Source of the DNA: Blasia pusilla
Taxonomy: Eukaryota
Length of the DNA stretch: 64,000 bases
Assembly: GCA_050084515.1 (NCBI GenBank)
Contig: CM114271.1
Span: forward strand, 7,874,001-7,938,000
Direction: 5' to 3'
How positions within the stretch are numbered: position 1 is the stretch's first letter; every line of letters starts with the position of its first letter. Of the stretch, positions 79-59,757 are shown in pieces. Under the pieces are notes generated by a model that saw only the letters and a program-made list of their open reading frames with translations, had not been told where the DNA came from and made no database searches. The position numbers were made by a program, and so were the translations under genes.

Positions 79-5128
<5,050 letters not shown>

Positions 5129-5177
5129 GGGGAGGCGAGGAGAATCAATACTTTGCTGTAATTTGTGATTTGACCAG

Positions 5178-6446
5178 TGTGATACCCAAAATTTTTTACT
5201 TTTGAAGATTTACATCTTTTTATTCAAAGAAGACTTGTATATACACTATGATTTTGATATTATGGTTGCATAGAAGAAGAATGAGTGAGATTGAAGTGAA
5301 TCACGAAGCTCCAAGGACAAGGCAGAGAGGTAGATAATCAAGGATTTGCCTTAGAGGAGAGGAAAATACAGAAACGAAGTCTCAAGACCCAACGCAAAGT
5401 TTGGAAAAGAAAGCAAAGCCTTATTAAGAACCGGTTTATGACGTGCTTTGCTCTTGAACGAACCATGATGAAGAAGAAGAGGAAGAAGTACTTCACTCTT
5501 GAACGAAGAACGAAGAACTTGGAATAAGAGCAAAGAATGGAGCGCTTCGTCTTCATATCAGGAGAAAGAGCTTCGTCCTCAAGTCAAGAAAAAGAAGTCC
5601 AGACTTCGCGGCGAAGCGAAGCTAAGACTCAAAGTGATTTCAAGTAGCATACCGTTAGAATAGTTAGACTAGGAAGAGGCGCGACTTTTTGTATCAAATA
5701 GGAAGTTCGTACAATTACGATCAGCGGATTCACAAGGATCGTAGGAAAAGAAAAGAGCGCCGTAGATCTAAGTAGTTACAAATGTTGAAGAGACACCAAC
5801 TTCATCAAGAATACTTTGAATCTTTGGAACACTTCTACTTCAGAGAGTATTTAAGAAGCATGAAAGTAGCTATCATTATCATGCTTTCACGAAGTCCTTA
5901 TGGTGTAGGAATGGTCCGAGCAAGGGAGTAGTACCCTCTCACGCTTGTATACACTTTGAAGCTTTCTCATTCTTGATGGAGTAGTAAAGCACTCATTTCT
6001 TCATTCTGATGTGCGATGCTTATGTCTGAATATTCTTTTTGGGTCTGCAGAGTGAAGAGTGAATAAGGCGAGCCTTTCTCATTAATGGAATAATCAACAT
6101 GGAGTTGTAGGAAATTTTTTTGACAGAGTATAACTTACGAAGACGGATTGAGTTTTGAAAGTAGGAAAAGCCAGCTTTCTTGTTGAGATCTCTGCGAGGT
6201 TTCTTGATGTCGAGAGGAAATCTACCTAAGCATGATGTCAACTCCACTAGAGAGAATTGAGAAAAGAAATCTTAGTACTAAGAAATATTTGAAGACATTG
6301 ATAAGACATTGAATCTAAATTATTCACACCTAAATACAACTATTGCAAGAGAATTGTAATTTTGAATTCTCTTTTCACCAAACAATGATCCTCTTGGGGA
6401 TCGAACTCAGTAAACGAATGTAATATTAAAACTCTTGTACATTACA
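5178..6446. mobile_element. Solo LTR, family C (copy 1)
   Basis: TGTGATACCC...CATTACA termini, 5-bp TSD ACCAG (5173-5177 / 6447-6451); homologous over its length to 53636-54852. Confidence 0.93.
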
Positions 6447-6642
6447 ACCAGTAAGTACCTAAAGAGAAGAAAAACCTCCATCTTAATAAGTTATTTTGGT
6501 TGATATCTTCTTAGACTATTGATAGAATATGGATGTGACGTGAACTCCTATCACCCGTTAGAACACATAATTAATAGAAGTGAATGAAGGAGAGTTCTAT
6601 GTTATGTAGACCATTTTCACACATATTGTTTGATCTATTAGA

Positions 6643-7610
6643 ATGCAGAGAATGGGGCAATTTAAAAGAGCTAGGCCAGGTCTAAGTGATGTTGGGAGGA
6701 TCGCTTCCCATGACGAAAAGATCTGGCATAGAGAGAAGGAAGCAGCAAGAGTTCTTGGGTTGAAGAAACTAAGGTGCCCGTGTAGTGGATGCAAAGGGAT
6801 AGAATTGAGATTAGTACACATTGTAGAAAAGCACCTCATTCAAAATAAGAGATATCCTCCCAAACGAATCTGAGTAAATCCTGATGATTATGATTCATCA
6901 GATGAGGAGTGGAAATCAAATGAAGGCCACCATGGTGATAATCACGTTACTCTAGATCATAGTGATGTTATAACTGATTTAAATCAGTCATGAAGTGATC
7001 CACCATTGGAAATTGACAAAACGTTAGATATCCATCGGATGATCAACGAGGCTTTCCATACCTTTGACATGGGACAAGTCCAAGATCTGCCAACAGAGAT
7101 ACAACTAGATGCTAGAATCGAAGATTGAGGATCAAGTGCCATTTGAGATGGGGGTAGACGAATCTGAAAGGGGCGGTGGTGAGGAGGAATGGGCTACACA
7201 ATCTAAGGTGTTAAGGGATGCTTGTCAACCCTTATTTACTCGTTCAAAAACTAGCAAACTTGCATTCACCATGTTGTTCTTAAACATATGTGGTACTCAC
7301 AATGTCTCAAATATTGCTGTGGATGAGATCCTAAAATTCCTGGCAGTGCAAGTCATGCCCAATGAGAATGTGGTTCCGAGAAACCACTATGATGCCAAAA
7401 CATTGATCAATAATTTGTGTTTGAATTATATTCAAATTCACTATTGTCCCAATGGTTGTATGTTCTTCAATGGAGAGCGTAAGGACTTGTTGAATTGCTC
7501 AAAGTGCAACTCCCCTCGATATAAAGTGCAAGGGAAAACAAAGATTGCTGTAAAGGTTCTCAGACACTTTCCAATTATCCTGCTGCTAAAACAAATGATT
7601 GTATGCATAT
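6643..7610 (+). pseudogene. CACTA/En-Spm transposase (TnpD-like) N-terminal fragment
   Basis: Transposase-associated motif CPCxxC...HL, then PLF...SKL...VSN..DEIL...LNYIQIHYCPNGCMFF...CSKCNSPRYK...KVLRHFPI, typical of CACTA transposases; contains stops and is truncated before the catalytic core. Confidence 0.88.
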
Positions 7611-7804
7611 ATGAGACATTCACTATTAAAAATGTTATGGTGTGCTCGATGTCATGCTTCTGATAAATGATGTGCAACCACATACTTGAATGTATTGAAA
7701 TGATTGTATGTGAGACATTTATTCCTAAAGAAATCCATAGTCTGTTCAATGTACAGAAACAATCAAAGAACAATAAAAGAAATTATCTTAATAACGTAAT
7801 GAAA

Positions 7805-8065
7805 CTAGAACTAGTTTTAATCAAATACCAACACTATAGAACTAAAAAAGAATGACTATACTTAGTTACACTTATACGAAAAGAAAGGACCACTAGTTTT
7901 TTTATCAAATACCAAAATTGTACATCTAGAAAGAAAGATTATTTAGTTTCAATTATACAACGAGAAATAACCACTAGTTTTTAATCAAATACCAAAATTA
8001 TACACTTAAAAATAATGACTATATACTTAGTTACAAGGATACAACTAGAAATAACCACTAGTTTA
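7805..8065. repeat. Degenerate AT-rich tandem repeat (~83-bp unit, ~3 copies), probably CACTA subterminal repeats
   Basis: Recurring ACTAGTTTT(T)ATCAAATACCA...TTAGTT units downstream of the transposase fragment; candidate TAGTG ends at 8189 and 8478. Confidence 0.65.
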
Positions 8066-8769
8066 GCATAACTGTAAGTAGTTTCATATAAAACACTTAC
8101 AATGGATTCTATATAAATTCAATAACTAGAATGACTACATTTAGTGTCAAATAGTAGCACGGAAATATTTGTCTACACTACATGTAGTGCGTTCGTCCAC
8201 GTGTCACACTTGTACTTCAACCACTCATTTTGTACCACATGTCAGAATCATAAAAAAATCCACGTAAGCATCGTAAGAATTCCACGTCAAACTCATTGGA
8301 TTGATCACTAGGATTCTATTCACTTGTACACTTTCCACCTTAGCGTTAAAAAATCTTTGCCAACGGTCATTTTGACACTAGAAATCCTTTATGACGAGTC
8401 CTTTGATACTACTTGTTTTCTAGTTATAAGTTAGTGTTATCAATCCGGGAGAACTAAACCCAGTATTAAATTCTAGTGGTTTTGGATTGAAATCCTTCTA
8501 CTGGAACACACACACAAACACGCACAATCCCATGCAAACTCATGGCATCCAAACAACAAGACAAGAAGTACCAAAATATGTCCAATCGTCCCCCTAGCTA
8601 GTGGTTAGGTCCCTCTAACTCGAGATAGCCATCTATCCCTACCTACCATGACATACATCTCTCAGACGCTAAGAGCAAGAAGGCCAGGTGCTCATGTGGC
8701 CCCATCGTTAGTCGCCTTCTTGTCATCCATATCACAGACACAAGTCGGAATGTAGAACTACCTACTCTA

Positions 8770-8905
8770 TGTACATCTGGGACACATGACCCTGAGGAAC
8801 CCTAGTGAGAGGTGGCGTCAAATATGCCATATGCCATCCTCTTGAACACCCATCATAGATTGGCATAGTGGCTGCATCACGGGCGGAACCACACAACACA
8901 CACCG
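8770..8905 (-). pseudogene. PHD finger at the integrase C-terminus of the Gypsy element
   Basis: CVLC..[Y]DGCSRGWHMA[Y]LTPPLTRVPQG followed by CPRC in a shifted frame; C4HC3 pattern with two Cys>Tyr changes. Confidence 0.85.
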
Positions 8906-9059
8906 CAAGCCTTCAAGAACCATTGCTAAGCTCGGATCAACTGTACCATCAATGTTCGGAAGATGACATGGCGCAGAGTTACGCACATGGTCCTTCCAAA
9001 CCATACCATCGCATCCCTCCAATAAGAGAACACCGGATGGCAAAACCTCACGCACTCTC

Positions 9060-11790
9060 AAGATGGGTGCGCCTTGCAGTCACATCCAATGTTGTGGGTG
9101 TCGTCTGCTACAAGTAGATATAGTCTCTTTGATGAAACCTCCGGATAGTAGGTCGATAACATCCTCCCCGAATAGTCGCATACCTCAACGTATCCCGCTG
9201 TTGCGCAATCGCCAAGTTCTCAAACGCCATGGGCATCACTCTCAGAAAAAACTCAGCCCTCTCTGAACATGCTCGCATCCATACATCAGGGTCATTAAGG
9301 TTCAACACCTCACCAATATCTTGACGAATGGCCGCAGGTAAATCTGGCTCATAGCCATAAAGCAACAAGTACGGTGAGAAAGACGCTAAGGATGCCTGCC
9401 TGCTAAATCTATATCCCATCGCCAACCACAACAACTGAAGGTCCCAATCTCCTAGGTCAGTGACTCTGCAAGCCATACTTACGTAGTCCTCGCTTCATCG
9501 TCTGCACAACCCGCTTCGCTAGTCCATCTACCTTAGGATGATCTCGCGAAGTAGTGCGGTGGTTGATTAGTGTCTGATCACACAAGGCCTGAAAGTCCCC
9601 GCGGAACTCTATACCCTAGTCTGTCAACACCTCAACTGATGCGCTGTAATGACTCAACACTCCATCTAGGAAGGCATACGCTACTCCCTCACTTGCTTTG
9701 TCAGGAAATGCAACCAACTCTATCCACTTCGAGAAGTGCTCGACCATCATCAACACATAATGACTATGGCGCTCCGTCAAAGGCAAAGGTCCTGCAAAAT
9801 CCAAACTCCATCTATAATCTAAACCCATGATTGGAAGTGGATGCAACTGTGGAGTTGGAGCATTGAACGAAGCTCAGACTCGATCACACACCATGCATTT
9901 GGCAATAAACTTTTGAACGTTAGTCTGCATGCCTCGCCAACAATACTGAATCTGGAGCAAGCTATATGTCCGCTTCACTCCAAAATGACCCAACTCCTTG
10001 TGGGCATGACGCATCAAACGTGCTCTATACAAAGGATGAGGCACTATACGCACTCTACCATCCTCCCACACTCGCAACACATGAGTCTCCTCCCAGCGGA
10101 ACCGTTTGGCCCGTTGTAGGACCCTATCCCGCTCTCTAGCACCCACTGTGCTTGCAACACTGCCAGTACAAAGATACTCCAAGACTACTCCATCATCATG
10201 AATATCTCGGCCACCTGTCGTCTCCTCACTGGCCTCGAGATCCAAGGACTCTCCATCAAAGTCTCCACACTCTAGCTCTCCATAGCCAACAAGCCTAAAT
10301 AGGTTGACGTGTGCCATCCTGGCACTGACTCCTCATCACTCTCTCCATGCCATCGAGCTCCAATCGCATCTCGTTGACTCGGGCATGGGTTACGACTCAG
10401 CCCATTTGCATCCTAGTTGAGCATCCCAGGTCTACGTACCACATGAAAATCGTACTCCTACAGCAACAGAGCCCATCTCGCAAGCTTCCCTGTAAGCTTG
10501 TCAGACTCCATCAACTACTTTAGTGGTTGATGATCAATGATGATGGTAAAGGGGTTGCCGAATAAGTAACACTTGAAATGTGCGACAACCCACACCGCAG
10601 CCAAGCACTCACCCTCATATGAGTTATACTTTGCCTCTACAATGTTGTTAGAACGGCTAGCGTAAGCCACCACAAACTCTCTACCCTCATCATCATGTTG
10701 GGTTGGCACCGCTCTAAGCCCCAACATGCTCCAATCTGTGTGCAATTGGAAAGGACGCCCCCTGATCGGTCTCCTCAAGATGGCTGCGGACGTCTATTTG
10801 TCTTTGAGCAGCTGAAATGCTTGCTCTTGCTGATCCCCCCAATGCCACTCATGATCCACCTTGGTCAGCAAGGTCAGTGGCTTCGCAATCGAAGTGAATC
10901 CCTTGACGTACCGCCCATAGAAGTTTGCCAATCCCATGAATGCACGAACGCGGATCACATCTATAGGGCGTGGAATGCGTGAAATAGCCTCTACCTTCGT
11001 TTGTTGAACACCAAGGCCACCTGGGTATATTGTAGGACCCAAGTACTCAATCTGGTCGTAGAAGAACTTACACTTGCCTGAATGTAGCTTCAGCCCATGT
11101 AACCGCAATCGTCGAAATACCTCCTCTAGATGTCGCTCATGCTCTTCAACTGTGGCACTAAAGACTACGATGTCATCAATATAACACCTAGCAAAATCGA
11201 GACCAGCCAAGATCCTATCCATGACCCTCTGAAACTTAGCCGGAGCGTTCCTTAACCCAAATGGTAAGAACCGCCACTAGTACAAACAATCCTTCCCGCG
11301 AGGATCGATGCCCCAAAATGCCGTCTTTTTCCTATCCTCCAATGTGATAGGCAGCTAATGGTTTCCGGCTCGCAAATCCAATGAACTTTTGCGTGACCAA
11401 TCGCATCAAAGATCTCCTCAAGAGTGGGTATGGTATACCCATCGGACTTCGTCTGCCAATTGATAGGCCGATAATCCCCACACATCCGCCTATCCGTTCA
11501 GTTGCCATGCACATCCTTCTTAGCAAGCATGACAGTGGCAGATGCATACTCCCCATGCGACATCTCCACTAGTCCTGCTCCAACCAAGTCCTGGCTCCTA
11601 CTGTGAATCAGAGCCCTCTCCATATCAATGAACCTGTAGGGTCGTCGAAAGATTGGCGTATCACTTGACAACTCAATGCGGATCCCTGGTCCCTTCAGAG
11701 TACCCAAATCCTCCATGCTAAACGCAAAGCAGCTCCTATAACTCCTAAGGAACTAATGTATCCGGCGCCGCTCTTCTCCTATCAGCTTAG
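9060..11790 (-). pseudogene. Gypsy RT - RNase H - integrase (interrupted)
   Basis: ORF fragments 11498-11716, 11252-11485, 10794-11222, 10515-10778, 9874-10317, 9616-9846 and 9108-9476 carry canonical motifs in Gypsy order. Confidence 0.95.
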
Positions 11791-12139
11791 GGCCCATATC
11801 TCGCTCCCAAGTCTCCATCGTGACTACGGTAGGACTCTCCGGCGCGGGTATCGATGGTTGCTATGGTGCAACCCCGTCTAGAATACCAACACTTGGCCGC
11901 TCTCCTGCAACCAACTGCAAACTGTGATCTCCTCCACATGTAGTGCCCAGAACCACGCTCGATGGTGTGGCTATCATCTCCTGGCGTACCTACAAAACAT
12001 CCCAAGAAGTCAAAGGGTGTCTCTCCCGATCTCCCCTAGTGTGTCGATCTCCTTGGGTCTCGCCCCAAACCATTGCCTCCACCGTCTTGGTAGGCATGGG
12101 GCTCATCAACGCAACCTCTGTGATTTGTCGCAATCTCAT

Positions 12140-13110
12140 CTGACGTTGCTCAGCCACTCCCAAGCTGAAGATCCATGTCAAGCAGTTCAGGTCCATCGCC
12201 TAACCCAAGATATGGCGTTGTGATGCCTCTCACACTCACGGTACTGCCGTCACTCTTGTGGGAAATCCCATCGCCCGATCTCTCTCGCCGGCGTTGGGCT
12301 CCACCAACCTCTAAACCTGGTCATCCTAAACCAAGCCAAGACCAGCCTCCTTATATGCATAGGAAGCGAGAAAACTCACAAACGTGGGAAAGGCTCCCCG
12401 CGGCCGGCCTACGCTGTTGACCACAGTCAACAGCGGTCGATCATCGTGCCTCACTACTTGTGATCGATGACCCGGATCCAGAATGGAATCCACTAACAAG
12501 TGGGAGGGGCGCTCCACTCTTGCATACGCCCTCTGCAACACCTCATGTGGTACCATGTTGGTCCACCACAGACGCAAGCGATATGCTCGAGAACCCACAC
12601 TCGCCGCATCCAAAACTAATGCTGGGCCAATCCGGACATGCACCTGATGTGCACTCGTCACCACCCGTGACCTCGAATCGCCCAAGATCAATACATTCTC
12701 TAGAATGTAAGCCGGAGAACGGGACTAATGCTCTTGCAAATATCTCAAGACCCTCAACATCTCCCAAAATAACGTGGATCGTGTGTCAACCAACCCGATG
12801 CCTCGTCGAACACTCAATTGACCCTCACATGGCCAACCTGCAATGACCAAATCAACGGTCCCTACCCGCTCCAAGTCCTGCGTCCCCAGCAACAAAATAT
12901 CCCTCGGTAGGGAACTGTGGTATCCCTGTACCGCGGTTGTAGACAAAAAGTTGGGAAAACATAGGCGTAACTATGCCACAAGTTGTAGTGAGATGCGCCT
13001 TGCAGGATCATCACTCTCCACATACAGGTACTGCTGCACTCGCACTCATGCTTGCAAAACAGCAGCTAATCCGGTGCTAATCCCTCCAAAGAGATCTAAC
13101 ACCTAAATAC
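12140..13110 (-). pseudogene. DNMT3-like C5-cytosine DNA methyltransferase domain inside Gypsy pol (copy 1)
   Basis: Motif I VLDLFGGIST, motif IV DLVIAGWPCEG, motif VI YILENV, motif VIII AYRLRLWWTN, motif IX ERS.GFP, motif X region MDLNCLTWIF; several in-frame stops. Confidence 0.9.
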
Positions 13111-16085
13111 TGTCCTCTGGAATACGCCACACAATGGGTGTGGTATCCAAGGATGTCATCATAGCACTCCTTGCTACCTCGGGTTTCTCAGACCCGTCAC
13201 GCTCTGGTGTGAACGCCTTGCTCCACGCGGTCTACGCGTGCTCATCTGCCAATCGTCGAAGCTCCTCAGTCAACCCCATAGGGGCACCTCTCCTCCACGG
13301 AATGATGCGGCTACCATAACACTCCTCTCTGTATAAATGTAAGGAACGGAAGTATCCTCTACATGGACATGTCCCTCAATCAAATCACTAGGCCAAGTGA
13401 TGGCACTACTAAGTACTATTAAGGTCACCACCTCTCCTGGCCGACGCTCGATCATTGCACCTGTAAATCGAATGGGTAATGAGCTAAGGCGCCCATTACC
13501 TAACTGCCATCCTGGTCTATAGGACGCTGACTCCTCCCAGTAATCGTGCGAAAACCCCATCGGGTATAACACTGCTCCACCAACCAAGACGTCGTAGGAC
13601 TCTACATCAGTCACTATCACCTTGGCTCGCACCATGGACTCATATGTAGGATGTCCCGGGCGAATCCTCACCACGACCTCCTATCGGGTGATATACTCTG
13701 TGGTACTCGCTCCACCCAAGGATTTTTGTATCCAAAATGGACAACGCTCCACATCGGCTCTCGTCAAGCCCAATCCTCTGAATGACGCTTTCCCCAACAT
13801 CAGGGGTTGCGATCCTGAATCCAACAAGACGAGCTGGGGACTAAAAACTCTACCTCTGGGACTCACCAACTGGAATACCTCTCCTTGATTATCCAGCAAC
13901 ACAACACAAGGAGAAGCCATGGCACGCTCTATCGCGGGTCTAGCAGGCATCTTCGCCATCCTAGCAGCCGCAACTTACCATGAATGTGACGTGGACAGCT
14001 CGAGCATCGGCTCCAAGGGCAGGTCCATCACCTCCTCTGCAATCACCTCTGAACGTGATGCAAGAACTCCAACTCCGCGCTCACATAGTGAAACGACTAG
14101 CGGAAAAGCCTCGGCGGGCGTATCCCCCAACGTCATAACATCGAAAGCAGAAAATAAAGGAGTACGGTACACAACGGTGGCCGCTCCCAACAACGTGCTC
14201 AACACATGCCCCTCCTGAGCATCAACAATAGGAGTCGTCACACTCGCTTCTCTTATTGCCCTCCGTGCCTGCACACCAACAACATCACCAACTCTCCAAG
14301 AATTTTGATGAGGATCCATCAATGGGGTCCTCATCGCTTCGGACAACGTGAAAGAATGAGGAAGCCTAGTCTATTTTCTAGCTTTCCCTTGCTATGGATC
14401 CAACTCTACGGCTGCTCCACGCATCATAGCTGCGGCGACCTCCATTTGGGCAACCCCGTACATCCAACCAGGATCCTCCATATCTCTGGCTGCTCCATAT
14501 GATGTCGATGCCACGGATTTGGCATCGGGTAATCTCAATGCCATAGCGGCAATCTACTCCTGCAGCTGCTGTATCTGAGCAGCCATCCCAACCTCACATC
14601 CGGCGTCTCCCTCGGCATGTCTAGATGGTCATACTCTACCTCCTCCACGGGCAGCTCCACCACCCTGGGGCACCCCTCGTCCCCCAACGGGACCACTTGG
14701 TGCACGATCTCTAGGCCCACCTGGACCGGCTACTTGCTCTGGTGCCCTCTCTGGCCCTGGGTTCGGACATAACTCAGGATGTAAACTGAAACACCTGGCG
14801 CGTGTATGACCATACCTCTGAAAATAGTCATGCTGATAACCTCCTAGTGCAGCACCATCTCCTCCTCCATGTTGAGGCACACCTCCGTGACCCTACCGAG
14901 TGTAATGGCGGTGATGATGGGCTCCACCACATGACCAACAAGTAATAATAGGCGGCTACTGTTGAGCCGCAATGTGGACCACTCAATGTGTACGGTGGAT
15001 CACTAACACACTCCTCTATACGCTCCCCCTTGTTTGAAGACAACACAGAAGGAGATCGAGGTGGTCTCTCACGTGGAGACCCTCGAAACTTCGCACCACT
15101 CCGTGTAAACCCTCCATAGCTACTCTCAGGTCCATTACCTCGCCTCTCAAAATCCTGAAAAGACGTCATGATGGCCGTCGTGCCCCTCTCACATGATGAC
15201 TCCCAATCTTGCGAGTAATCCCTCAATCACTCAAACTAAACATGCGGCACTCAATCTACACTCTCTCACTAAGACGTGTGTTGTGCGGCAACAAGCAGCG
15301 TGTTGCGGAAAATCACTGATCTATTGTCTCATCGACAAACCATCCTCAACTTTGGACATGTCACACAAGTCTATGTCCCCTAAACCCATACATCATCGAT
15401 GCTCCTAGAATCAGCACGAAACCCAATATCCCAAATAACTTCCCAATATCCGAAAATCCCTCACACGTGCAGGGTAAGAGACTAGAATGGGTAACCTGAC
15501 AATAAAGTCAATGTCACTCCTCGGAAACTGCAAATCTCGACCCCAACTTGGTCGTGAAGACAACTCCTCCAATCAGCAAGTCGTACTCCTCTCGTACTGA
15601 CACTGCTCAAACCTCCTCAATGTGCGGTGCAGGTCGAGCGGTCCGGTGCGGCACGGAACGGCTACAAACGGCATGGCACTCGAGAATGGGGCGCGGCACT
15701 CGGCGACATACCCTCCTCAACCAGTAATTCATACGCTTTGCTCCTTAGTGAAGGAGCGGCTCCGCGATCGAGACGATGCGGTGTGGCCACGAGCGGCACG
15801 ACGTAGCAATTGGCGGCGCGTTGCGGCTACGGCGTCACGACACTGTACTCGATCGTCGTCGAGCGGCTACCAATCACAACATAGCAGCATGAAATGAAAA
15901 CTCAAATACTGTAAGCCGGGATGACCTGCCATCACTAGTTGATGACAAAATTGCGATGACAGTGGCGGCCAAAACAAAGTATGTGGTGGCGACGTAAGTT
16001 AGAGAATCAACGAACGTCATGGAAGACCCTCCACTCCGTAATGGCGGCAATTGCAACCAAAGGGTGGACAACTGACGGGGAATAT

Positions 16086-16798
16086 TGTAAAGCCCAATGT
16101 CTCTTTCTCCTACACAAAATTCGGCAGCGCTTCCGCGCTGATTTCTCCCAACGAAAATGTAAAACCTATTAATAAAAATTAGAAAACTACATGGTGCTCC
16201 CCAGAGCACCGGCATGGGGCAACCGGCCCCCATAATCATTCCCTATCAAATTTTGGGCAGCCCTTCCGCGACCCACTCTTTCACACGAAAAATTGGCAAA
16301 TGCAAAGAACAATCAAAGCAGCCCTTGCTTTGATTGGGACATGTCTCTCTCAATGTCAAACCAAACCCACTCTCCTAATGAGAGGCTTGGGTTACACACA
16401 CAAGGCAAGCAAGATCATAGCTCCGCCGCCTCATGCCAAGAGGTTCAACAAAGAGAGAATGAGCTCTCAAGCTCTCTCTCCTTGAGGTATACCCCTCCCC
16501 TCTCCCAAGCTCTCTCCATGGTAACCTATGCTCCCAAGTCACCTCCTTGGCTCTTGACCTGATGTATGAGGTCAAGGGCCACTTACCAAAAATTGAAAGT
16601 CGATCACATACTCAAAATGGTACTTATCTAAAATAGTAAGTTCCTCAATATGGTTCCAAATGAGCGGAAACGAAAGGGAAACCTCCTCTCTCAAGTTTCC
16701 TTGGGGCCTTAGCAGGTCATCTTGACCTATTAAGCCTGTCCTCCGCTACTCACGAAGGCGCTCTACTAGATCTTACCGATCTCTTAAGAGATGTGACA
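16086..16798 (-). repeat. Putative 5' LTR of Gypsy-DNMT copy 1 (family E)
   Basis: TGTCAC...GCTTTACA on minus strand; homology to 45838-46720 begins exactly at the TG. Confidence 0.7.
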
Positions 16799-18823
16799 GA
16801 ACTCCTTTCGCTTAATGCTATGAATGCTTTACAATATTAACCTCATGACCCAAGTCTAACTACAAATTTTACGTACCTCTGTCTATACTATTGTTTGAAG
16901 AGCGATTTTCATACTGCGACAGACAATTGAGTGTTCATCACATGTCTTTTAAATTCAAAATGCGCAACGCATGACATAACAAGGCGTTTAAAATTACATC
17001 ACTGGTCCTAAGTAATTACTACAAATTTCTTCGTGGCCTAAGACTTCACTACCCATACTATTGAAATTTAAAAAGGAAGGAAAATTTGTACTACATCCTC
17101 CACTGCTTTAATGCCCGACGACAGAAATCGACGGTAAATTGGAGTTACTTTGAGATGACGGGGCTCCGTGAAGTTTAGAGGGCTAGGGAGGGGCCAATGG
17201 CGAGGCGGGCACCAGTCAGGTGGAAGCAGCTACAGACATTTTAGGATTATTTGATGAAAATCCCCTAGTGTGTTTCCAATAACTATAGCCTTCGCCTGAC
17301 TTTGGCGGCTTGGAGCGGGCCCCACGCTTATCCCTTCAGTCAAGTTCAGTGGGGACGAAGCAGGTGATACGGGTACAGAACGAGTTACCAGAGGCTGGGC
17401 GTTAAGGGTTTAGCAGAGCAGCTAGGGCGACATGTCTCGCCCGAGAGTGAAGATTAAGTAAAGTCTTCCGGTGGTGAATGTCGAGGAAGGTTCGTTGAAC
17501 CACTAAGTCCGGGTTTCACATCAAGAGGGAAGTCACGCGCCACCGCAATATTCGGCAATATTTGAGGGAAGTTCTTTGGTTTGCCCCGCCAAGGCATTGC
17601 GTGAAGATCGAGCTCCAGTGCGCCATGATTTAGAGTACGAACTTGCGTGAGGAATGATTAGAGCCATGTATGCTTGACTATTAGCTGGCTTTAGCGGCCA
17701 ACCTGGAACACCTGATCGGGAGTTGGAGATGAGAATAGAGGAGGACTATGTGGGTTTGATGCAAGTAGTTTCTTACACGACGTAGTACTTCGGCAAATTT
17801 CCATTCGCCTGGATTCATTTAGCGAGCAATCCCCTCAAAAGCTTTTACCTCGCCAAAGGTGTGGGAGAGAATTCTTTATGTATGTACGTCATCGGGACAT
17901 CTTAGTCTTACCTTTCTTATTGTTTCCAATGCCCATGGCGGACTTTTGTACTCTGCTGTAATTACGGTGTAGCGGTACTTCAGCCCGCTGTGAAGAGGTG
18001 ATGTGTAAGACGCTGGCCGTCTCTGTTGATTTTGTCGGTAGCCCCATCCGGTCGAATTTTCAGAAAGAATTCGGGAAACTGTTGTAGCTGTGGTATTTGT
18101 TCTTTAGCCTCTTCTGTGCTGCCCACCGTGTTGTCCCCTAGTCCCTCATCACTTTACATTCACTCCTGCTAAGACTCAATCTGTCTGTCTGTCGGTCTCT
18201 GTTTCCCTCTCTTTGCTCGTCTGATAAGGACTAATGGAGCATTGTTGAAATGAGAGTTGATTTTGTTGAAGTCTGATCCTGCGCAGCATCTTGGTCCCCC
18301 TGGAATGAAGTAGAATCTTGTCCAGATTCGTGTGTTCTATTCCTTTAGACTCTTCAGCTTGGTTCTTCCGCGATTACAGGGATTGGCGTTATCATAATCG
18401 GCGAAGGAAGGTGGTAATACCCCTGGAGTGGTTCATGTACGTCCGTTGGGCAGATTATTGTTGGTAGGTGGTCACTCTCAAGATCCTTCCATTTAACAGT
18501 ACGTCTACCGTGATAGTGTACACTACTCTTGATCGATCGATCTAGGAAGACCTTTCTGTTGGAAGGTCTTAAGCGCGGAACCGAAGAGAATTTTTGAATG
18601 TGGGAGCCCGAAACAAGGTATCTACTCTTTGTGGAATCGAGCTGTCGAAGCTCGAGGATCGTACAATCCGGAGGCTGATCTCCAATACTACTAAACTGCA
18701 ACAACCGAGATCAGGTAGTAAGTGACAGCAGCTGTTACCAGTGTTGCATTATTTAAACACTCGCTGATGAAATGATGGCAGTGTGAGTGGATTCGAGCTG
18801 TTTGAGTGGCGAATTCCAACAAT

Positions 18824-20800
18824 ATGGCACAGACCTCAGAGGCTCGCCGGATTATCATTCCGTGCTCTGTCACTTCTCTAGATGACTTCAAACCAGTTGC
18901 TGGAAACGGAAATTCGCTGGAATCGTCCAAAATCCTGGAGGCTGTGAAAGTGGACAGTGGTAGTGAGCTTACACCGCGGTCTAGAGTCTCTTGGGCAAGT
19001 CAGGTGGAGGAAGAGCACGAAGCTACAGGTTGGACCGGTCTCCCGAGAAACAAGCACGAGAAAGGTGGGATGTCGAACGACAAGGTGGATGACGCAGCGA
19101 AGAAAAATAAGAAGAAGAAGAAGAAGAAGACCAAGGGCGCTTCCACTGCGGAAAATAGCTCTACGGTTGAAGGTAGTCAGAAATCCGAAGATAGAGTCAT
19201 TCCATCCGATGCAAAACTGGAGTCGAAAGCGAATTTATCGAATGGAAGTCATCAGCCAGCGGTAAACAATTCCACTCCCGAAAATGATATCTATAGTAAC
19301 CAGCCCGAAACACCCAATTCTTCGTCAAAGGCTGCTGCAAGCAATGGGGGTAATGGACACAGCAGATTTTCCGAGTGTGCAGGTAGTCCCAACGGTCGAA
19401 ACAAACCCAGCAACCTGGCTGGGACGTCAGTGTGGGTAACTAGGAACACCGAGGAGCTTAAAGCTGCCAGCTCACCGAAGGCAAAGCTGTCCTCTGGGTC
19501 TTCATGGCAGCCAGTCGGGGTCAAGGACACTTCAAATGAGAATGGAGACTCGGGTTGGGACACAGGCTCGAAGCAAGCAGGGTTAGACTCCCCGATGACT
19601 GGAGTGTCGGGCTGGGAAATGGCGGGTTCTCATCGAGGTCGAAAAGGAGCCGATCAGTCGGTGATATCAGCGGCAGCAGCACCTTACATTCCTCCATCTC
19701 CCAAAGGAAACTGGGACGAAATGCTACCCTCAGAGAACCCATCGCCGAATTGGGATGCTGGCTGGGAAGTGGCCAGTTCTCGTCGAGGTAAGAAAGGAGA
19801 CGACGTCCAGTCGAAGTCTTCCGGGGGATCAAAGTCTAAGGGACGAGGACAGCACTTGATCCCTAGACCGAATGAGCATGGTGGTAGAGGAGGAGCCAAG
19901 CAACGATCTGGTGAATGGGAGAAGGGGCCTCGTGGTCGAGGCGCCGGGGCCGTTCATGAGAAAGGTGGACGCCCAAGCCCCAGGAAGTCTGCAAGGGCAG
20001 AAGGAGGTAACAACTTCGGGTCGCTCCTCCAGCAACCAATTCAATCCGCTTGGGGGAAACCTCTTTTCAAATCACTTAGTAATGCCTCTAATCCCGATAC
20101 CACACCCTTGCCAGCTACTGCTCAAGGGTCAGGAATAGCTGCTAATACGAAGAGTCCTCCTGGCGTTCTGGAAAAACTTCTTTCCACGGAGCATGCTGAT
20201 TTGTTAGCTGATCATGTTGAGTTCAATGGGGGCTCAACCTCTATCAATGCTTGGAAAGGAGGATTTGCTGCCTTCTCTGGAAATGGGCCGTCAGTGTTTG
20301 ATGATTACCCGGGAAGTCTCTACTCTGATAGTCAGTGCTCAGATGGGGACCTTGACAGTGACACAATGAGCCTCGCATCTTTTGACTCTGAAGAAAGTCA
20401 CAAAAGTCATTCAACGCAGAAGAGGAACAAGTGGTTCCGCAACTTCTTTCAAGATCTGGAGGAGTTGACAGAGGATCAACTGCAAGAGCATGACCGTCAG
20501 TGGCATTGCCCTGCCTGTCAAGGTGGAGTGGGTGCGATTGACTGGTATCGTGGACTCCAGCCGCTGCTTGCACATGCAAAAACTGTCCGATCAAAGAGGG
20601 TGAAGCTACACAAAGCATTTGCTGAGGTCTTGGAGGAGGAAGTTAGAATCAGAGGAGCAGCTCCAGGGACTCATGGAAGTGGCAAATACGGGAAGTGGAG
20701 AGGATTGGGAGATGACAATGACAACCAAGACATTTTGATTGTTTGGCCACCCATGGTCATCATCCGTAACACTCAGCTAGAGCAAGACGAAGTTGACAAG
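18824..20800 (+). CDS. SGS3: SGS3 coding exon 1 (disordered N-terminus, zf-XS, start of XS)
   Basis: Long ORF 18806-20827; donor AAG|GT at 20800/20801. Confidence 0.92.
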
Positions 20801-23800
20801 GTTTTGAGAAGTTTACCTCTTCCTTAAGCCTGATTAACATTAGGATAGAGTTGTTCTGTAGCTCATTCACCAGTTTGCACATTCAAAAATAGTCTGATCT
20901 GAGTCCTTTCACTACTCTTGTTTTTATGTTTAGAGAGTTATTTGTAGCCTGAGGATTACCTACCTGCTGAAGTCAAAATTTCAATGTGAGGGCATAACAT
21001 CCAGAATCACTTAAGTGATTTGTATCCAGCTAGGAGCACTAACTTGTCCTCAAGTGTGTATGTTCACAACAGGATGCATGAATTGGATTAAAACTGTATT
21101 GTCCTACATTTTTATACTGGAGTGCATATATGAGTTGAGTATGTGTACAAATCTGTGAGGCACTCACTACTCATTAGCATGCCACTCGTATTCTGATTTG
21201 CTTTCCCTTTGGACTTGCTAGACAAAGATTCAGCAATTTGAGTAGAGCATGTGGAATTCAAATTTGTATTCATCACCATTTCTCTCTGTTGCGCTTTCTA
21301 CAGTGGATTGGAATGGGTAATAAGGAGCTGTTAGATATGTTCAAAAGTCACAATCCTATGAAGGCTCGCCATGCTTATGGACCTCAAGGTCATCGGGGAA
21401 TAAGCATTTTAATTTTTCCAGAATCACCAACTGGATATTATGATGCTCAACGTCTTGACAAGCACTTCAAAGAAGCTCGTCGAGGCAGGGACTACTGGAA
21501 CACCCCAGGAAAAGTTCTATTTCAGCCTGGAGGGGATCGAATTTTGTATGGCTATATGGCCTCTCCAGAGGATTTGGATAGTTTCAACAAGCACAGCAAA
21601 GGTAAGAGCCTGTAGCAGGGCATCTTTTGATTCATCTCTCATCCATTTTAGGTGAAAAAAAAATCGTCCATCACTTTTTGACTTCACAATTGAGGGACCT
21701 CATGATAAAACTATGGGTGAATTTAGTGCATGAGCACGCTCATTAATCATCTTCCCATTTTACTGAAATGCACCACCTTTCATTTCGGTTCTTGTCTGTG
21801 CTGTGCCATATTGGCACACGAGTAATCTGGCTAGATCTGCTCATTTCAAGTTTCATGGACAACACTAGGGGTGGACATAAATAGAAGGTTATGCTTCTTT
21901 CTTTGATTGCCTTACCTTAGTTTCACTTAGTCTCTTCAGATTTCATCCTTTACAACAAGGTTATGTAGGGAGATGGGCCTGAGTCTTTTGTAAGACTTTT
22001 CAAGAGGCCAAGAAGAATTATGGAAAAATTAAAAATGAAATAAAAAACCCTGCTGTGCTGTAGGAAAGCAACATCTGAAGTGGGAGAGAAAAAGCCTGCG
22101 GGAGATGGTATTAGTTCCAATGCGAAAGATAGATGAAGAAAGCGTCCAAGTGACTTACCTTCAAGGAAAAGTACAGAGAGAGATTGAGGTTACCAAGACA
22201 CTCAAGAAGAATATCTCTGTGATGAGGAGGAAGCTAGACATGCGAGAAGATGAGCTTAAAGTCATCAGGGAGAGAGCAAAGGAACAGTATCAACAGCAAC
22301 AGATGGAGGTCATTATCTGCACTCTATATGTATCAGCATTTAACATTCATTTTTGCCTAAAGAATTAAGTTTTTAACTTCAGAGATTTGTAGGTGGGATG
22401 CAAAGAATTACACTTTATTTGTATGCATTATCAGCTCTATCAAACTTTTCAAATTTCTTTTGATAAGAGTGTAACTCGTGACAATATGCTTCTTCAAAAT
22501 TAAGTCATAGTGTTAAGATCAGTGTACGACCTTGTGCTTTAGGAATTGCCTTCCATTTGTGTTTCATGACTCCATGTTGTTACCTCCTTAAACGAATTTG
22601 ACATCCCACTGAAGTTATGTTTAAGATGGTCTTTTTGGCAATTGTTGAACTGAAAGTGTTTGGGGTGCAGATCGAAGATATGGAGGCACTTTATAAGTCG
22701 AAGATTGAACAGCTGAAACAGGAGATACTAGATAAAGAGGAAGGGTTGCAAAAAGTTCATAAAGATTATGAACAAGAACATCTAGATCAGTGTGAGCAGC
22801 TGGAACAGCGGGCAATGAAAATCCCCAAAGATAAGAATCTAAGTGATGAGCAGCAGCAGCAGCAGGCTTTGTACGTATCTCTCTCTCTCTCCCTTGTTCT
22901 CCCTTGTTCTCTCTCTCCCTGGTTGCTGGGACCAGGAGCTCCCAGCAAAATTGGGCTGCACCTCCCTGGACAATCCTGCCTAACCATGGAACGGGCAAAA
23001 GCCAGGGATGTTGAGACGATTCTCAAGCTCTGACCTCCCTCTGACTCCATAGACGGGACTATGTTTTCTCTGGAGAAAAGCACACCCTATCTAATTGTTT
23101 TCCCCTTTCCCACTGCCTGAGCACATAGACCAGTACATCGAGTGAACACTGCACTCATGACTACCACAGAACAACCAGCGTTAGAAACCTCGCCGGAGGA
23201 GGTCCAAGACATGACCAGTGTCAAGGATCTTTCCCACAAGCAAATGAAGAGCAGGGACAGTGGACGATCTGTGAGATCAAATGGCTCACGGAGATTGATC
23301 GCACCAAACTCTCGCCACTATGTCAGGAAAAAAATGAGGCAGTGTGACAAGGAACGACTCCATGCAGCTGTCACACATCAACAGAGGTTATACCTTATCT
23401 GGAAGTGGCATCCATCACCAGACGGTTCTCTGAACTAGAAGGAAAATGGGAAAGCTTTCAGGCCAACCAGATGTTGGCATGGAATACAATGATGCAGGCA
23501 GCAAAAGAAGAGCAGGGCAGATGGATGTCCAGCAAGGAATCGAACCTCCTCGAATGGACGGCTCAGAAGACAACTCTGGAATTAGAGCTGGTCGCTTTGA
23601 GGGCTGAAAACATGCAATTGAAGAAGGACTTAGCTGCCTGCTTCAAAGAGGATAACACTCAGCTTGGGAAAGTAATGCAAGAGTACCGTTTAACTGGGAA
23701 CAGCCCTGCACGTCCTGTTAGAACCTGGACTGAAGTAGTGGGCAAGCACACGACCACAACACAAATCAAGGAGGTTGCAACACAGGTAGCCAAAGAGGTA

Positions 23801-26800
23801 GCAAAAGAGGAAGCAGATAGGGTCCTAGAAATCATGGATAGGAAAACCAGAGAACTCAATTTAGTTATCATGGGACTGCACTTTTCCAAGGAAGAAGACT
23901 GTAATTCAGTTTTGCAAGAGAAGGTCTTCACAACTCTCGGGGTCACACCAACAGTCACCTTCACAGGGATCAGACTTGGGAAAGGAACAGGGGACCGACC
24001 AGCACCAATGTTGGTACAATTTGATCCCTCACAACGGGGACCAGTGATGGAAACGAGGTTGGCCATCCTCCGCAGTAAAGCAGTCCTGAAAGGATCTGCT
24101 ATCCGTATCTTCCCAGATCTGACCACCAAGCAAAGAGCAGCACTCCCTATTGAAAGGGAGAAGGTTCTGGCTGCCCGCAACAACGGTCTTTGGAGTGAAC
24201 TCAGGGAAGGAAAGGCCACGACACCAGTACCTAGGAGAAATAAAAATGCATCACCAACACGACAAACAGGAGGGGCAATGAGCGAAAACTCGGATTCCAA
24301 CCAGGGAATTAGCAATTCTACAACTCGGAACCAGGACTTGGAGGTGACAAACCTCCATGACAAGACCTCCCTATAGGGAATGGAGGATGGTAAGAATATT
24401 ACCAACCCATCCATTCAGGCAGTTTTTCACAATTGTGGAGGACCATTCTGGTCCAGAGGCAATGGCATTACATATCTGGGCACAAAACTGGACCTTATCT
24501 TTTTTGCTGAAACATATGAACATGATTCCAACCGCATTCTCAACACAGAGGACTTCCAGGTTTTTGCTATCCACAACCCACTCACAAACAGCAAAAGCAA
24601 AGGACACGGTGGCCTGGCATGCTTGATAGCACCATGGTTACAACCTTTTGTCTCCATAGCCGACATTGATGAGGAGAAACACTTCCTCTGGATCAAGGTC
24701 AACAAAGAAGTGGGGTTACCGAAAGTTCTCATTGCTGTTTGCTACTGCAGTCCCACTGTGCTCAAAAGAGAATTCCCGTATGAGGCTCTCTCTACATCTA
24801 TTGAGCACCACATGCACAGGGGAAATGAGAAAATGATTGACCAGCAGAAGTATCTCTTTGTACAAAGTCAGAGCTAGCATCAGCTAGACCATCCATGATT
24901 TCAGCTTGTACACAATCAGCAAATCAGTTCTTGTCTCTATTGCCAAATCAGAGCCCTACCATGATGTGACTCTTCTTACTATCTAAGAGATACTAAGAAG
25001 GATTCTACAGTCACACCTTGCACTCACACTACAGGTCCTCACATGTCACCAGCTCAGAGATCAGACATGGCTCACCATTGAGCACAAACAATCTCCATCA
25101 GCATACTAGACAAAACTACCTGCCTTCCAGTGGGGCTCTAGCAAGCACAGCAATTAGTCTCAATCTCCTCTTCCTACTCTCTGATCACTCTGCAGCAGGA
25201 CCAAGAGCCTCAGGAGTCCTCACCAAAACTGTGCATGCTGTAGAATTGGCTTCTGCTCTCTAAACAGAAACATTATATACATGAGGGTGAGCACTTCTGG
25301 CCCTTGGATCTTCTTGAACAGATCCATACCCTAAATAACAGATGGTGGCTAGCCCTAACTCGAGAATTGCCCTAATTCAAGGTTACCCTAAAAAGATAGA
25401 GGAACACTAAGTTATCTCTAGCTAACTAAATTAGTATCCAACTAAGTTAGTATTTGACTAACTACTTTTAGGGCATGACTAAACTAGATATTAACAAATT
25501 TCAACACTCCCTCTTAATGAGAGTTTAGAGTAATGCCCATCATAGATATACACTTTCTATGCCCTGTGACAGAGGTTTGGTCAGGACATCAGCTGCCATA
25601 TTCTCTGTTGGACAGTAAACCAAGGAGATTTCTCTTCCTATCATTTCTCTCACAAAGTGATCTTTGATGTCAATGTGTTTTGTTCTAGGATGATGAACAG
25701 GATTTTTGCTTAATGGAATACTTCCTTTGTTGTCAACCTGTAGGGATGTAGGAGTCATCTGTTCATATCCAAGATCATTCAATAAGCTCCTTAATCAGAT
25801 CACCTCCTGAGCAGCAAGAGAAAGGGCCATGTACTCTGCCTCAGTTGTAGAGAGTGCAACAGTTCTTTGTTTCTTACTGCACCAGCTGATCACCCCTCCA
25901 CTTAACAAGAAGACATATCCACTTGTTGATCTTCTTTCATCAGTGTCATCTCCCCAACTTGCATCTGAAAACCCTTCCAAGATTGGTCCATTTTCTTGAT
26001 GCCTGTATTCCAAGTATGTTCTTGTTGTGCCACGCAAATATCTGAGTACTCTCTTCAGACATTTCCAATGTTCTATTGTAGGTTTGCTGGTGTACCTGGC
26101 TAAGACACCAACTGGGTATGCTAAGTCTGCTCTGGTACAGACCATAGCAAACATCAATGACCCTACAGCACTTTGATATAGTGCTTGCAAATTGTCAACC
26201 TTCTCAGTTGAAATTCCCATATCTTTGCTGAGTTTGCAGCCAGGATCTAGGGGTGTTGATACAGGCTTACAATCTTGCATGTTGTACCTGATCAAGATAC
26301 TCTCTATATACTTTTCTTGACTCAATCGAATCCAGCTCTCTTCCCGATTTCTCTCAATCTGAATCCCCAATTGCCACTTTGCTGGACCCAGATCAACCAT
26401 CTCAAAGTTGCGACAGAGGTCTTTCTTCACTCTCTTTACAGTGTCTAAGCTCCCTCCTAGCATCAGAAGATCATCAACATATAATGCTATGTACATAGTG
26501 GAGTCTAAGGAGTACACTCCTTGATCTGCATTGCTACGTTGGAATCCTTTCCTGATCAGGTAAGCATCCATCTTCTCATACCAGAATCTAGGTGCTTGCT
26601 TTAGGCCATAAAGGGCTTTCTTCAAGAGACACACCTTGCCTGGATGAGTATATCCATCTGGTACCTCCATGTAGATCTCCTCTTTGAGTTCTCCATTTAA
26701 GAATGCAGTCTTCACATCCATCTGTTCCACCTCCCAATTTTGTTGAGCTGCTAATGCCAAGAGAACTCTAATGGATCCATACCTTGCAACAGGAGCAAAG

Positions 26801-41256: not shown

Positions 41257-41545
41257 CTGGAAATTATTAAACTCGGGTTTAGAATTTCTGTTGAAGTCAT
41301 TAAGCATGGACTCAGACAGGACCATAGTTCAGTAGCTGAAATATGCTATTTGAAGGTTGGATGTATCATCACCAACAACAGTGTGGGAGCAGAGCAGTAC
41401 TTATTTTGACAGCCAAGAAGGCATGCAAGAGTCTAGGACTCCCGGCATGTGAACAGGAAAGAGACTTCAAAATAACTGCTGGCCTGATCTACACAAAGAG
41501 GTTGACTTCAAGCTCAATGAAGTAGGGTTCAAAAGTCCAAGAGCA

Positions 41546-54852: not shown

Positions 54853-54907
54853 GTCCTTGGATCCTGGGGCCAATGAGGAGACCATAGGTGGTCGAGATAT
54901 TCATGAT

Positions 54908-59757
<4,850 letters not shown>

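Follow-up and report, generated by a model that had tools for sequence, protein, structure and literature searches.

A decayed Gypsy retrotransposon of Blasia pusilla with a DNMT3-like methyltransferase and an integrase-joined PHD finger in one polyprotein

Introduction

The Gypsy-type element KnitGypsy-Dnmt3 of Klebsormidium nitens encodes a DNMT3-related methyltransferase with conserved catalytic residues within its pol open reading frame (ORF), and the text of its description proposes self-methylation and describes its repeats as DIRS-like in structure (de Mendoza et al. 2018, PMC5890265). In the Gypsy elements called chromoviruses, the integrase carries a C-terminal chromodomain (Gao et al. 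2008, cited in the text of 10.1101/2021.11.30.470311). The EpiLTRs, or DAM-LTRs, of Cymbomonas and Euglena are described in preprint text as combining an adenine methyltransferase, a DNMT4-related DNA methyltransferase (DNMT) and a chromodomain (bioRxiv 10.64898/2026.05.21.726589). Among reader domains, the PHD finger and the chromodomain are reported as the most frequent fusions to retrotransposon genes (text of Grau-Bove et al., 10.1101/2021.11.30.470311), and PHD is given as a common accessory domain of the transposable elements (TEs) of Chlamydomonas (text of Craig et al. 2021, PMC8557442). Here, we analyzed a stretch of 64,000 nucleotides from Blasia pusilla (contig CM114271.1, positions 7,874,001 to 7,938,000; hereafter the window), in which one copy of a Gypsy element, designated copy 1, carries the remnants of both a DNMT and a PHD finger in a single polyprotein.

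The accessible text of 10.1101/2021.11.30.470311 and of PMC8557442 describes no pairing of a DNMT with a PHD finger in one polyprotein. The text and supplementary files of PMC5890265, apart from the domain architecture drawn in its figure 4c, mention neither PHD, nor Marchantia, nor liverworts, and our literature search, which covered texts and not figures, found no description of a Gypsy polyprotein with a DNMT and a PHD finger.

We consider it probable that copy 1 is a dead Gypsy copy of a DNMT/PHD clade in which the PHD finger serves as a tether of the integrase and the DNMT works separately, the two sharing one life cycle, with no guidance of the writer by the reader.

Results

Domain order of copy 1

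Copy 1 occupies the minus strand from approximately 16798 to 8762 and is a decayed Ty3/Gypsy-type retrotransposon whose one polyprotein has the order gag, protease (PR), DNMT, reverse transcriptase (RT), RNase H (RH), integrase (INT), and PHD. The domains were called on minus-strand stop-to-stop ORF pieces with Pfam, and collinearity was established by tblastn of intact relatives. An earlier note on this DNA had claimed the order PR-DNMT-RT-RH-INT-PHD for copy 1, and the ORF pieces, Pfam, and the collinearity with the intact polyprotein P0052 (2358 amino acids [aa]) bear it out: residues 952–2337 of P0052, comprising DNMT, RT, RH, INT, and PHD, are collinear with 13102 to 8789. The span of 8770–13110 given in that note agrees with a DNMT start at 13102 and a PHD end at 8786, the polyprotein stop codon being 8762–8764. 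Copy 1 is also collinear with P0047 and P0007, and the tblastn matches of P0044 and P0047, both Marchantia gene models, carry the homology on through gag, PR, and DNMT up to 14982. The PR-RT-RH-INT order, an RVT_1-type RT, an RNase H, and an integrase with H2C2 and DDE parts place copy 1 among Ty3/Gypsy elements.

The DNMT3-like C5 cytosine methyltransferase pseudogene (12170–13102) was recognized with a family profile. Because Pfam is weak on this divergent DNMT, we built such profiles from fetched proteins of relatives and re-scored all 304 of these proteins. The family DNMT profile matches the pseudogene over 311 residues in one frame (350 bits, E = 1.4e-106), and the Pfam DNA_methylase match (PF00145) at 12725–12970 has an E value of 2.8e-4 and 20.8 bits, below the cut-off of 22. 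The DNMT (13270–12170) and the start of the RT (11809–11336) share frame -1, so that the C5 DNMT domain is part of the reading frame of pol.

The RT and RNase H (10329–11809) are supported by Pfam (RVT_1 at 10794–11276, E = 3.5e-21; RT_RNaseH at 10515–10793, E = 5e-23) and by tblastn high-scoring segment pairs to P0047 and P0052. The H2C2 zinc-binding domain and DDE core of the integrase (9460–10332) are covered by Integrase_H2C2 at 9874–10332 (E = 1.7e-14) and by an rve match at 9616–9873 that falls under the Pfam cut-off (E = 2.6e-4), and the family INT profile matches three window pieces (E = 3e-29, 1.6e-17, and 1.4e-13). The C-terminal region of the integrase (8906–9459), which includes an SH3-like module and directly adjoins the PHD finger remnant of the C4HC3 type (8786–8905), was delimited by alignment with P0001, P0002, P0007, and others and by tblastn matches at 9467–9060 and 9073–8786; the remnant itself was delimited by the family PHD profile and by alignment with relatives.

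Upstream of the DNMT lie the gag-protease region (13273–14982) and the putative 5' long terminal repeat (LTR) with leader, the non-coding 5' end of copy 1 (15227–16798), both on the minus strand like all the domains above. In the gag-protease region, P0044 residues 290–823 align with 14982–13273 and P0052 residues 566–791, which contain the Asp_protease_2 match of P0052, align with 14139–13471. The ORF translation has a protease motif D-S-G at about 13813–21, and Pfam had no match in the gag-protease pieces of the window. At the 5' end, self-BLAST pairs 15456–16798 with 47669–45838 of a second copy, to which homology starts at about 16798. Neither self-BLAST nor the boundary sequences revealed a direct repeat linking the 5' end (15000–17600) with the region below the PHD (6400–8800), and no LTR pair of copy 1 was found; copy 1 is probably cut off at its 3' end.

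The PHD finger of copy 1 as a fossil

The minus-strand piece 8762–9079 (105 aa) runs in one uninterrupted frame from the SH3-like integrase end into the Cys/His-rich PHD. Family-level tests confirmed this PHD as a fossil. The family PHD profile, run against all 2585 six-frame pieces of the window, had this piece as its sole match (E = 3.8e-14, 49.8 bits), with profile positions 1–40 of 46 covered and the next best window piece at E = 0.5. The 105-aa piece retrieved 36 database proteins (best E = 9.8e-39), with hosts that include Marchantia polymorpha, Calypogeia fissa, and Sphagnum fallax; the precomputed annotation has PF00628 in 29 of the 36, in several of them right after rve. The PF00628 search of the window piece, a check that the earlier note had proposed for the repaired peptide, stayed below threshold, with no match at E<=10 on the entire 105-aa piece and E = 0.038 (14.4 bits, cut-off 24) on the trimmed piece 8762–8920 (52 aa), so that Pfam by itself is insufficient to establish the window PHD.

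The family motif derived from the alignment is C-x2-C, C-D-x-C, [W/Y/F]-H-x2-C, and W-x-C-P-x-C, and in bryophyte members it ends a few residues ahead of the stop codon. In the window copy, 4 of the 8 zinc ligands are present in frame (C1, C2, C4, and H5), C3 and C6 are Tyr, and the terminal Cys pair cannot be read in frame. The C4HC3 zinc-ligand pattern is incomplete here, and the window PHD is a decayed member by descent.

Pfam found no Chromo match in the window pieces, and the PHD sits at the usual position of the chromodomain. The placement put forward for this locus, a PHD where chromoviruses have a chromodomain, stands, in that the PHD follows the C-terminal domain of the integrase and P0086 has PHD and then Chromo: this one polyprotein holds a DNMT, a PHD at 1923–1967, and a Chromo domain at 1993–2043 (Pfam).

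DNMT and PHD among the relatives

Relatives were fetched by two routes. The DNMT route, with the DNMT-RT-RH part of Marchantia P0047 as the query and proteins of 2084–5000 aa as the targets, returned 110 proteins, among which the precomputed Pfam annotation places PF00145 in 24 and PF00628 in 57; by hand count, 22 of the 24 DNMT-bearers have a PHD. The PHD route, an exhaustive search with the integrase C-terminal region and PHD of P0002, gave 6677 cluster representatives up to E = 1e-3, of which 309 reached E<=1e-30. In the long representatives scanned from the best 150 of these 309, the PHD follows rve in 27/27 and PF00145 occurs in 7/27.

Pfam with coordinates, run on 20 of the 24 DNMT-bearers from the P0047 search, distinguishes two domain orders. 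The first, gag-PR-DNMT-RT-RH-INT-PHD as in the window, is that of P0052 and P0055, and P0056 and P0084 share it without a PHD match; the second, RT-RH-DNMT-INT-PHD, is that of 16 of the 20. By the family profiles, the architectures of the 304 proteins include RT-DNMT-INT-PHD (76 proteins), DNMT-INT-PHD (19), DNMT-RT-INT-PHD (5), DNMT-RT-INT (4), RT-DNMT-INT (4), RT-INT-PHD (11), and RT-INT (40). The DNMT-fetched set has a DNMT in 67 of 110 proteins, a PHD in 59, and both in 58, that is to say, a PHD in 58 of 67 DNMT-bearers. In the PHD-fetched set, 148 of the best 150 have a PHD, and a DNMT is present in 30 of the 37 proteins that span RT to INT; the other 7 start just ahead of, or inside, RT-RH, where an upstream DNMT would be invisible. 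The PHD is present in intact members, both in P0052 and P0055 with the window order and in the 76 proteins with the RT-RH-DNMT-INT-PHD order, which goes against the first refuting condition of the earlier note, absence of the PHD from intact family members.

RT-RH-DNMT-INT-PHD predominates among the fetched proteins, and its DNMT is seen by Pfam in a minority only; routine annotation therefore under-reports this order. Both modules are conserved: all 8 zinc ligands are present in 212 of 233 aligned PHD domains of relatives, PF00628 exceeds the Pfam cut-off in 18/20, 27/27, and 30/30 relatives of three scanned sets, and, over 100 DNMT rows, conservation reaches 90% or more at the catalytic Cys and at the E-N of motif VI. 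In the relatives, the PHD is always joined to the integrase. The named hosts of window-like orders and of INT-PHD fragments are Marchantia, Calypogeia, Sphagnum, and Closterium, and those of RT-RH-DNMT-INT-PHD elements are the chlorophytes Haematococcus, Monoraphidium, and Chlamydomonas eustigma.

Many relatives continue beyond the PHD. At least 250 residues follow it in 112 of 209 PHD-bearing relatives (for example, P0033, P0172, and P0174), and of the 131 tails that reach 150 aa, 128 are homologous. A Tudor-like segment comes first in the tail (PF21743 in 6 of the 30 proteins scanned, E = 4.1e-5 at best), and amino-methyltransferase-like motifs are present too, with weak D12 matches in 2 of 30; for the P0033 tail, an Atlas methyltransferase lead scored 0.84, under the level that counts. 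The window lineage, unlike these long-tailed relatives, stops directly after the PHD.

Joining the DNMT-bearing and the PHD-bearing liverwort gene models through their RNase H overlap was tried and rejected, P0047 and P0007 being 57% identical and belonging to different subfamilies.

Phylogeny of the DNMT/PHD clade

For the RT-RH trees, an RT-RH envelope of 300 aa or more was required; 131 of the 147 proteins with an RT match qualified, and 16, including P0047, fell short and were left out. The two copies of the window were translated across their stops, each stop written as X, and included as well. In the FastTree tree, a branch with a support of 100 parts 92 PHD/DNMT rows from 41 rows without PHD. 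A chromodomain occurs in 13 PHD-less proteins of the DNMT-fetched set (precomputed Pfam), and such rows lie beyond the PHD/DNMT clade. Rows with the RT-RH-DNMT-INT-PHD order come together in a single group of 78 (support 100). Copy 1 and copy 2 cluster with P0025, P0026, and P0162 (FastTree 98; for copy 1, also IQ-TREE SH-like approximate likelihood ratio test [SH-aLRT] 99), and their wider group includes P0052, P0055, P0056, and P0084 (FastTree support 92). A quick IQ-TREE run on 56 rows (13 of the outgroup, 13 with the window-like order, and 30 with the other order; copy 2 and 76 rows were omitted) concurs, with SH-aLRT values of 97 for the split from the PHD-less rows, 100, and 99, and with moderate backbone supports of 83–93.

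Rooted with the outgroup, the window domain order appears as a basal grade and the RT-RH-DNMT-INT-PHD order as derived. The DNMTs of the two orders are close to each other: P0044 reaches up to 43% identity over 336 aa (E = 3e-82) with DNMTs placed between RH and INT, and closeness between orders equals closeness within orders, compared with a P0044 score of only 36 bits against DNMT3A. These comparisons favor a single DNMT capture followed by relocation. By the RT-RH trees, the co-occurrence of DNMT and PHD is largely inheritance inside one clade and not repeated independent pairing. Judged by these sequences, the clade is old, belongs to the green lineage, and is defined by two captured chromatin modules, a DNMT3-like methyltransferase and a C4HC3 PHD at the C-terminus of the integrase.

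Class of the writer and of the reader

The DNMT of P0044 had 27 matches in PDB, of which 25 were DNMT3A/B/C (best E = 1.7e-8) and the others M.HaeIII and a plant DRM. The element DNMT appears to be DNMT3-like as judged on this relative. The PHD of P0002 had 85 PDB matches at E<=0.01, down to 8.8e-14. The best were PHF12, CHD4, KMT2C/D, KDM5B PHD1, PHF21A, DPF3/DPF2, ATXR5, KDM5A PHD1, WSTF, KAT6A, UHRF1, BAZ2A/B, and AIRE; ING, BPTF, TAF3, PHF8, PYGO, and RAG2 were not among the 60 of the 85 matches listed.

According to the text of PMC3241642, binders of histone H3 unmodified at lysine 4 (H3K4) include BHC80, DNMT3L, AIRE, ATRX, CHD4, DNMT3A, DPF3, JADE1, and TRIM24, and the class is marked by the absence of an aromatic cage, an acidic cluster N-terminal of C1, and a hydrophobic residue before C3. 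KDM5A/B PHD1 and PHF21A are assigned to the same class in the text of PMC6979384. We counted residues in 209 of 231 family fingers, namely those that fit the strict C4HC3 pattern; the residue preceding C3 is hydrophobic in 204 of them. Two residues before the His, at what we take to be the position of the aromatic-cage Trp, 194 of the 209 have Gly and 1 has Trp. Two of the three marks of the unmethylated-K4 class fit the family PHD, and the acidic cluster is weak.

The family PHD thus resembles readers of the unmodified H3 tail (PHF21A, CHD4, KDM5 PHD1, DPF3, and AIRE), which are nearest to it by sequence. The suggestion that this PHD is of a type that reads the H3K4 state agrees with this placement, its nearest neighbors being readers of the H3 tail unmethylated at K4, a class that includes the ADD domains of DNMT3A and DNMT3L.

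Decay of copy 1 and comparison with copy 2

The DNMT of copy 1 has 8 in-frame stops, and its motif IV is P-C-E, not P-C-Q; intact catalytic motifs are absent from the window DNMT. Between DNMT and PHD, the tblastn matches change frame at least 4 times (-1, -3, -2, -3, and -1). Copy 1 is a long-dead pseudogene, incapable of acting as a module today. The self-contained epigenetic module envisaged in the earlier note could not operate from this copy, given the stops in the DNMT, the loss of half of the PHD ligands, and the frame changes in pol.

Copy 2 of the same element lies on the plus strand at 45838–54908 (self-BLAST, 86.5% identity over 4743 bases). It ends at the equivalent of 10194, within the zinc-finger region of the integrase, and is interrupted by a 1.2-kb repeat at 53636–54852, after which 57 element bases continue (54852–54908). 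In tblastn, copy 2 shows neither an integrase core nor a PHD, and the INT and PHD pieces match nothing in the window but copy 1, which leaves copy 1 as the sole witness of the PHD there.

Over 4706 aligned sites, copy 1 and copy 2 show 610 differences, and transitions outnumber transversions by 2.9 to 1. Two of the 8 DNMT stops are common to both copies (equivalents of 13046–48 and 12725–27), and both copies therefore come from an ancestor that was already dead. This suggests an inverted segmental duplication of a dead element, or the copying of a dead template, over two independent active insertions. The same two other repeats follow copy 1 and copy 2.

Surroundings of the element

The window is repeat-rich plant DNA. 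On the plus strand at 18806–21615, a 673-aa ORF with zf-XS, followed by a piece with XS, represents the SGS3/IDN2-like family of RNA-silencing genes; this XS-domain gene, for which an Atlas comparison points to Streptophyta, sits between the two copies of the methyltransferase-bearing element. Nested Copia elements occupy 24826–43839, with RVT_2 at 25795–27468, 28350–30665, and 42872–43528 and gag-PR-INT at 31326–34983, and a 0.68-kb repeat occurs in four copies, 98% identical and in both orientations, at 24826, 30647, 34942, and 38017.

A repeat unit of about 4.7 kb is present twice, at 110–5107 and 54917–59757, inverted and circularly permuted with about 87% identity; it holds an RVT_1 piece at 3240–3698 of the plus strand and has arrays of units of about 8 bases at its borders (1–317 and 4873–5163). 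The 1.2-kb repeat family has three copies (5178–6446, 53636–54852, and 44846–45773), the second of which is the one inserted in copy 2 within its integrase region. An AT-rich stretch on the plus strand (6634–7663), which lies shortly downstream of where the PHD of copy 1 ends, contains a transposase-associated fragment at 6634–6873 (PF13963, E = 2.6e-4, below the cut-off). This stretch may have truncated the 3' end of copy 1.

Discussion

A proposed PHD tether on the integrase and a separately acting DNMT

The role of the PHD is most likely that of an integrase tether, by analogy with chromodomains. In the window order, DNMT and PHD are separated by RT, RH, and integrase, about 1150 residues in all, and cleavage of the polyprotein would probably leave the PHD with the integrase and the DNMT elsewhere. 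We propose the following scheme: (i) protease processing would leave the PHD on the integrase; (ii) as chromodomains may do in chromoviruses, the PHD would anchor the intasome on nucleosomes that lack K4 methylation on the H3 tail; (iii) such tethering would steer insertions clear of active promoters; (iv) the DNMT would act apart, on the element's own DNA, following de Mendoza et al. (2018); and (v) both modules would serve one life cycle, with the reader not directing the writer.

Several points weigh against this scheme. The two protein sets were fetched with DNMT- or PHD-containing queries, and their frequencies are conditional ones and not population estimates. P0056 and P0084, with the window-type order, have kept the DNMT and miss the PHD, and the PHD therefore seems dispensable in some lineages. 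The DNMT of the RT-RH-DNMT-INT-PHD relatives adjoins the integrase and might remain joined to INT-PHD, in which case a coupling of the two modules would gain in likelihood. In the family fingers, the 10 positions ahead of C1 hold a mean of 1.3 D/E, with none in 58 of 209. Finally, copy 1 yielded no pair of LTRs to set its 3' limit.

A possible coupling of reader and writer

The earlier note had proposed that the element joins both activities. On this proposal, the PHD would guide the element DNMT, in cis or within one complex, to chromatin with H3 unmethylated at K4 (H3K4me0), in the manner of the DNMT3A/DNMT3L ADD, and the same chromatin state would direct both integration and de novo methylation. 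We regard this as doubtful. The two domains have been retained jointly across a deep clade, within one RT clade and with the PHD in most DNMT-bearers; the DNMT appears DNMT3-like, and the PHD resembles the K4me0 class to which the DNMT3A/3L ADD belongs. The position of the DNMT directly N-terminal of the integrase in 76 relatives, moreover, makes a mature DNMT-INT-PHD protein conceivable. Against it, common descent explains the co-retention, RT, RH, and integrase intervene in the window domain order, and P0056 and P0084 do with a DNMT and no PHD. What stands of the proposal is the presence of DNMT and PHD in one polyprotein across the clade; the directed coupling does not follow, given the separation of the two domains and their shared inheritance.

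A broader form of the proposal seems unlikely to us as well. In it, INT-PHD would supply the element DNMT with ADD-like targeting, insertions would land in H3K4me0 chromatin and become self-methylated, and the whole would be a clade-wide toolkit that includes, in many chlorophyte members, the Tudor-like and amino-methyltransferase-like part that follows the PHD.

A zinc-binding adaptor or an artefact as less likely alternatives

The PHD may instead be a zinc-binding adaptor and no histone reader, its partner being a host protein, a nucleic acid, or the intasome. This we judge improbable. A few PHD fingers bind non-histone proteins, according to the text of PMC3241642. The N-terminal acidic cluster is weak and some members have weak RING-like Pfam matches, both of which would suit an adaptor. 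The similarity to solved H3-tail readers, however, extends over the whole finger, with E values down to that of the best PDB match, and two of its features are conserved, a hydrophobic residue ahead of C3 and the C-D that follows. A Tudor-like segment follows the finger in many relatives and a chromodomain in one, both of them chromatin readers, which also counts against a mere adaptor.

That the PHD is a host exon or part of another element brought beside a truncated integrase by nesting or mis-assembly is extremely improbable: the region is a repeat nest and copy 1 has no recognizable 3' LTR, but the SH3-like integrase end and the PHD share one uninterrupted frame piece, the identical junction recurs in dozens of intact proteins of other organisms, and the collinearity with relatives already contradicts such an origin.

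Significance and comparison with known systems

How mobile elements negotiate host silencing can be seen in retrotransposons that bring chromatin machinery of their own. The DNMT3-like enzyme and a PHD that seems to belong to the class of unmodified-H3-tail readers have, to judge from their sequences, traveled together across a deep clade with both conserved, in liverworts, a moss, a zygnematophyte, and chlorophytes. The pairing raises the questions of whether the PHD directs integration as a chromodomain would and whether a transposon-borne DNMT3 uses a reader in trans; Marchantia and chlorophyte algae are hosts with chromatin maps for such questions, the window element itself being a fossil only.

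The integrase-tether reading sets copy 1 beside several known systems. Like KnitGypsy-Dnmt3, as its description has it, copy 1 is a Gypsy-type streptophyte element with a DNMT3-related enzyme inside the pol ORF; it differs in its host, another streptophyte, in its decay, and in that its nearest named relatives are from liverworts and a moss. With chromoviruses, it shares a chromatin reader fused to the C-terminus of the integrase, a proposed tether to a chromatin state. The reader there is a chromodomain and here a PHD, the likely mark there is methylated lysine 9 of H3 (H3K9me) and here unmethylated H3K4, and the chromodomain-bearing rows of the RT tree lie outside the PHD/DNMT clade. EpiLTRs likewise unite a DNA methyltransferase and a chromatin reader in one LTR retrotransposon, with the idea of an epigenetic toolkit, but the pair there is DNMT4-related plus chromodomain and here DNMT3-like plus PHD, and the accessible preprint text mentions no PHD domain.

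Among host proteins, the ADD of DNMT3A and DNMT3L, PHF21A (BHC80), AIRE, CHD4, DPF3, and KDM5A/B PHD1 appear nearest to the family PHD, which accompanies a DNMT3-like enzyme. In DNMT3, the reader belongs to the mature enzyme itself and regulates its catalytic domain, whereas the family PHD is on the integrase. Gypsy-DNMT3 elements, chromodomain integrases, and PHD-TE fusions are already known singly, and a DNMT3-like enzyme with a PHD finger in one polyprotein appears, as far as the searched texts show, to be a new combination of them.

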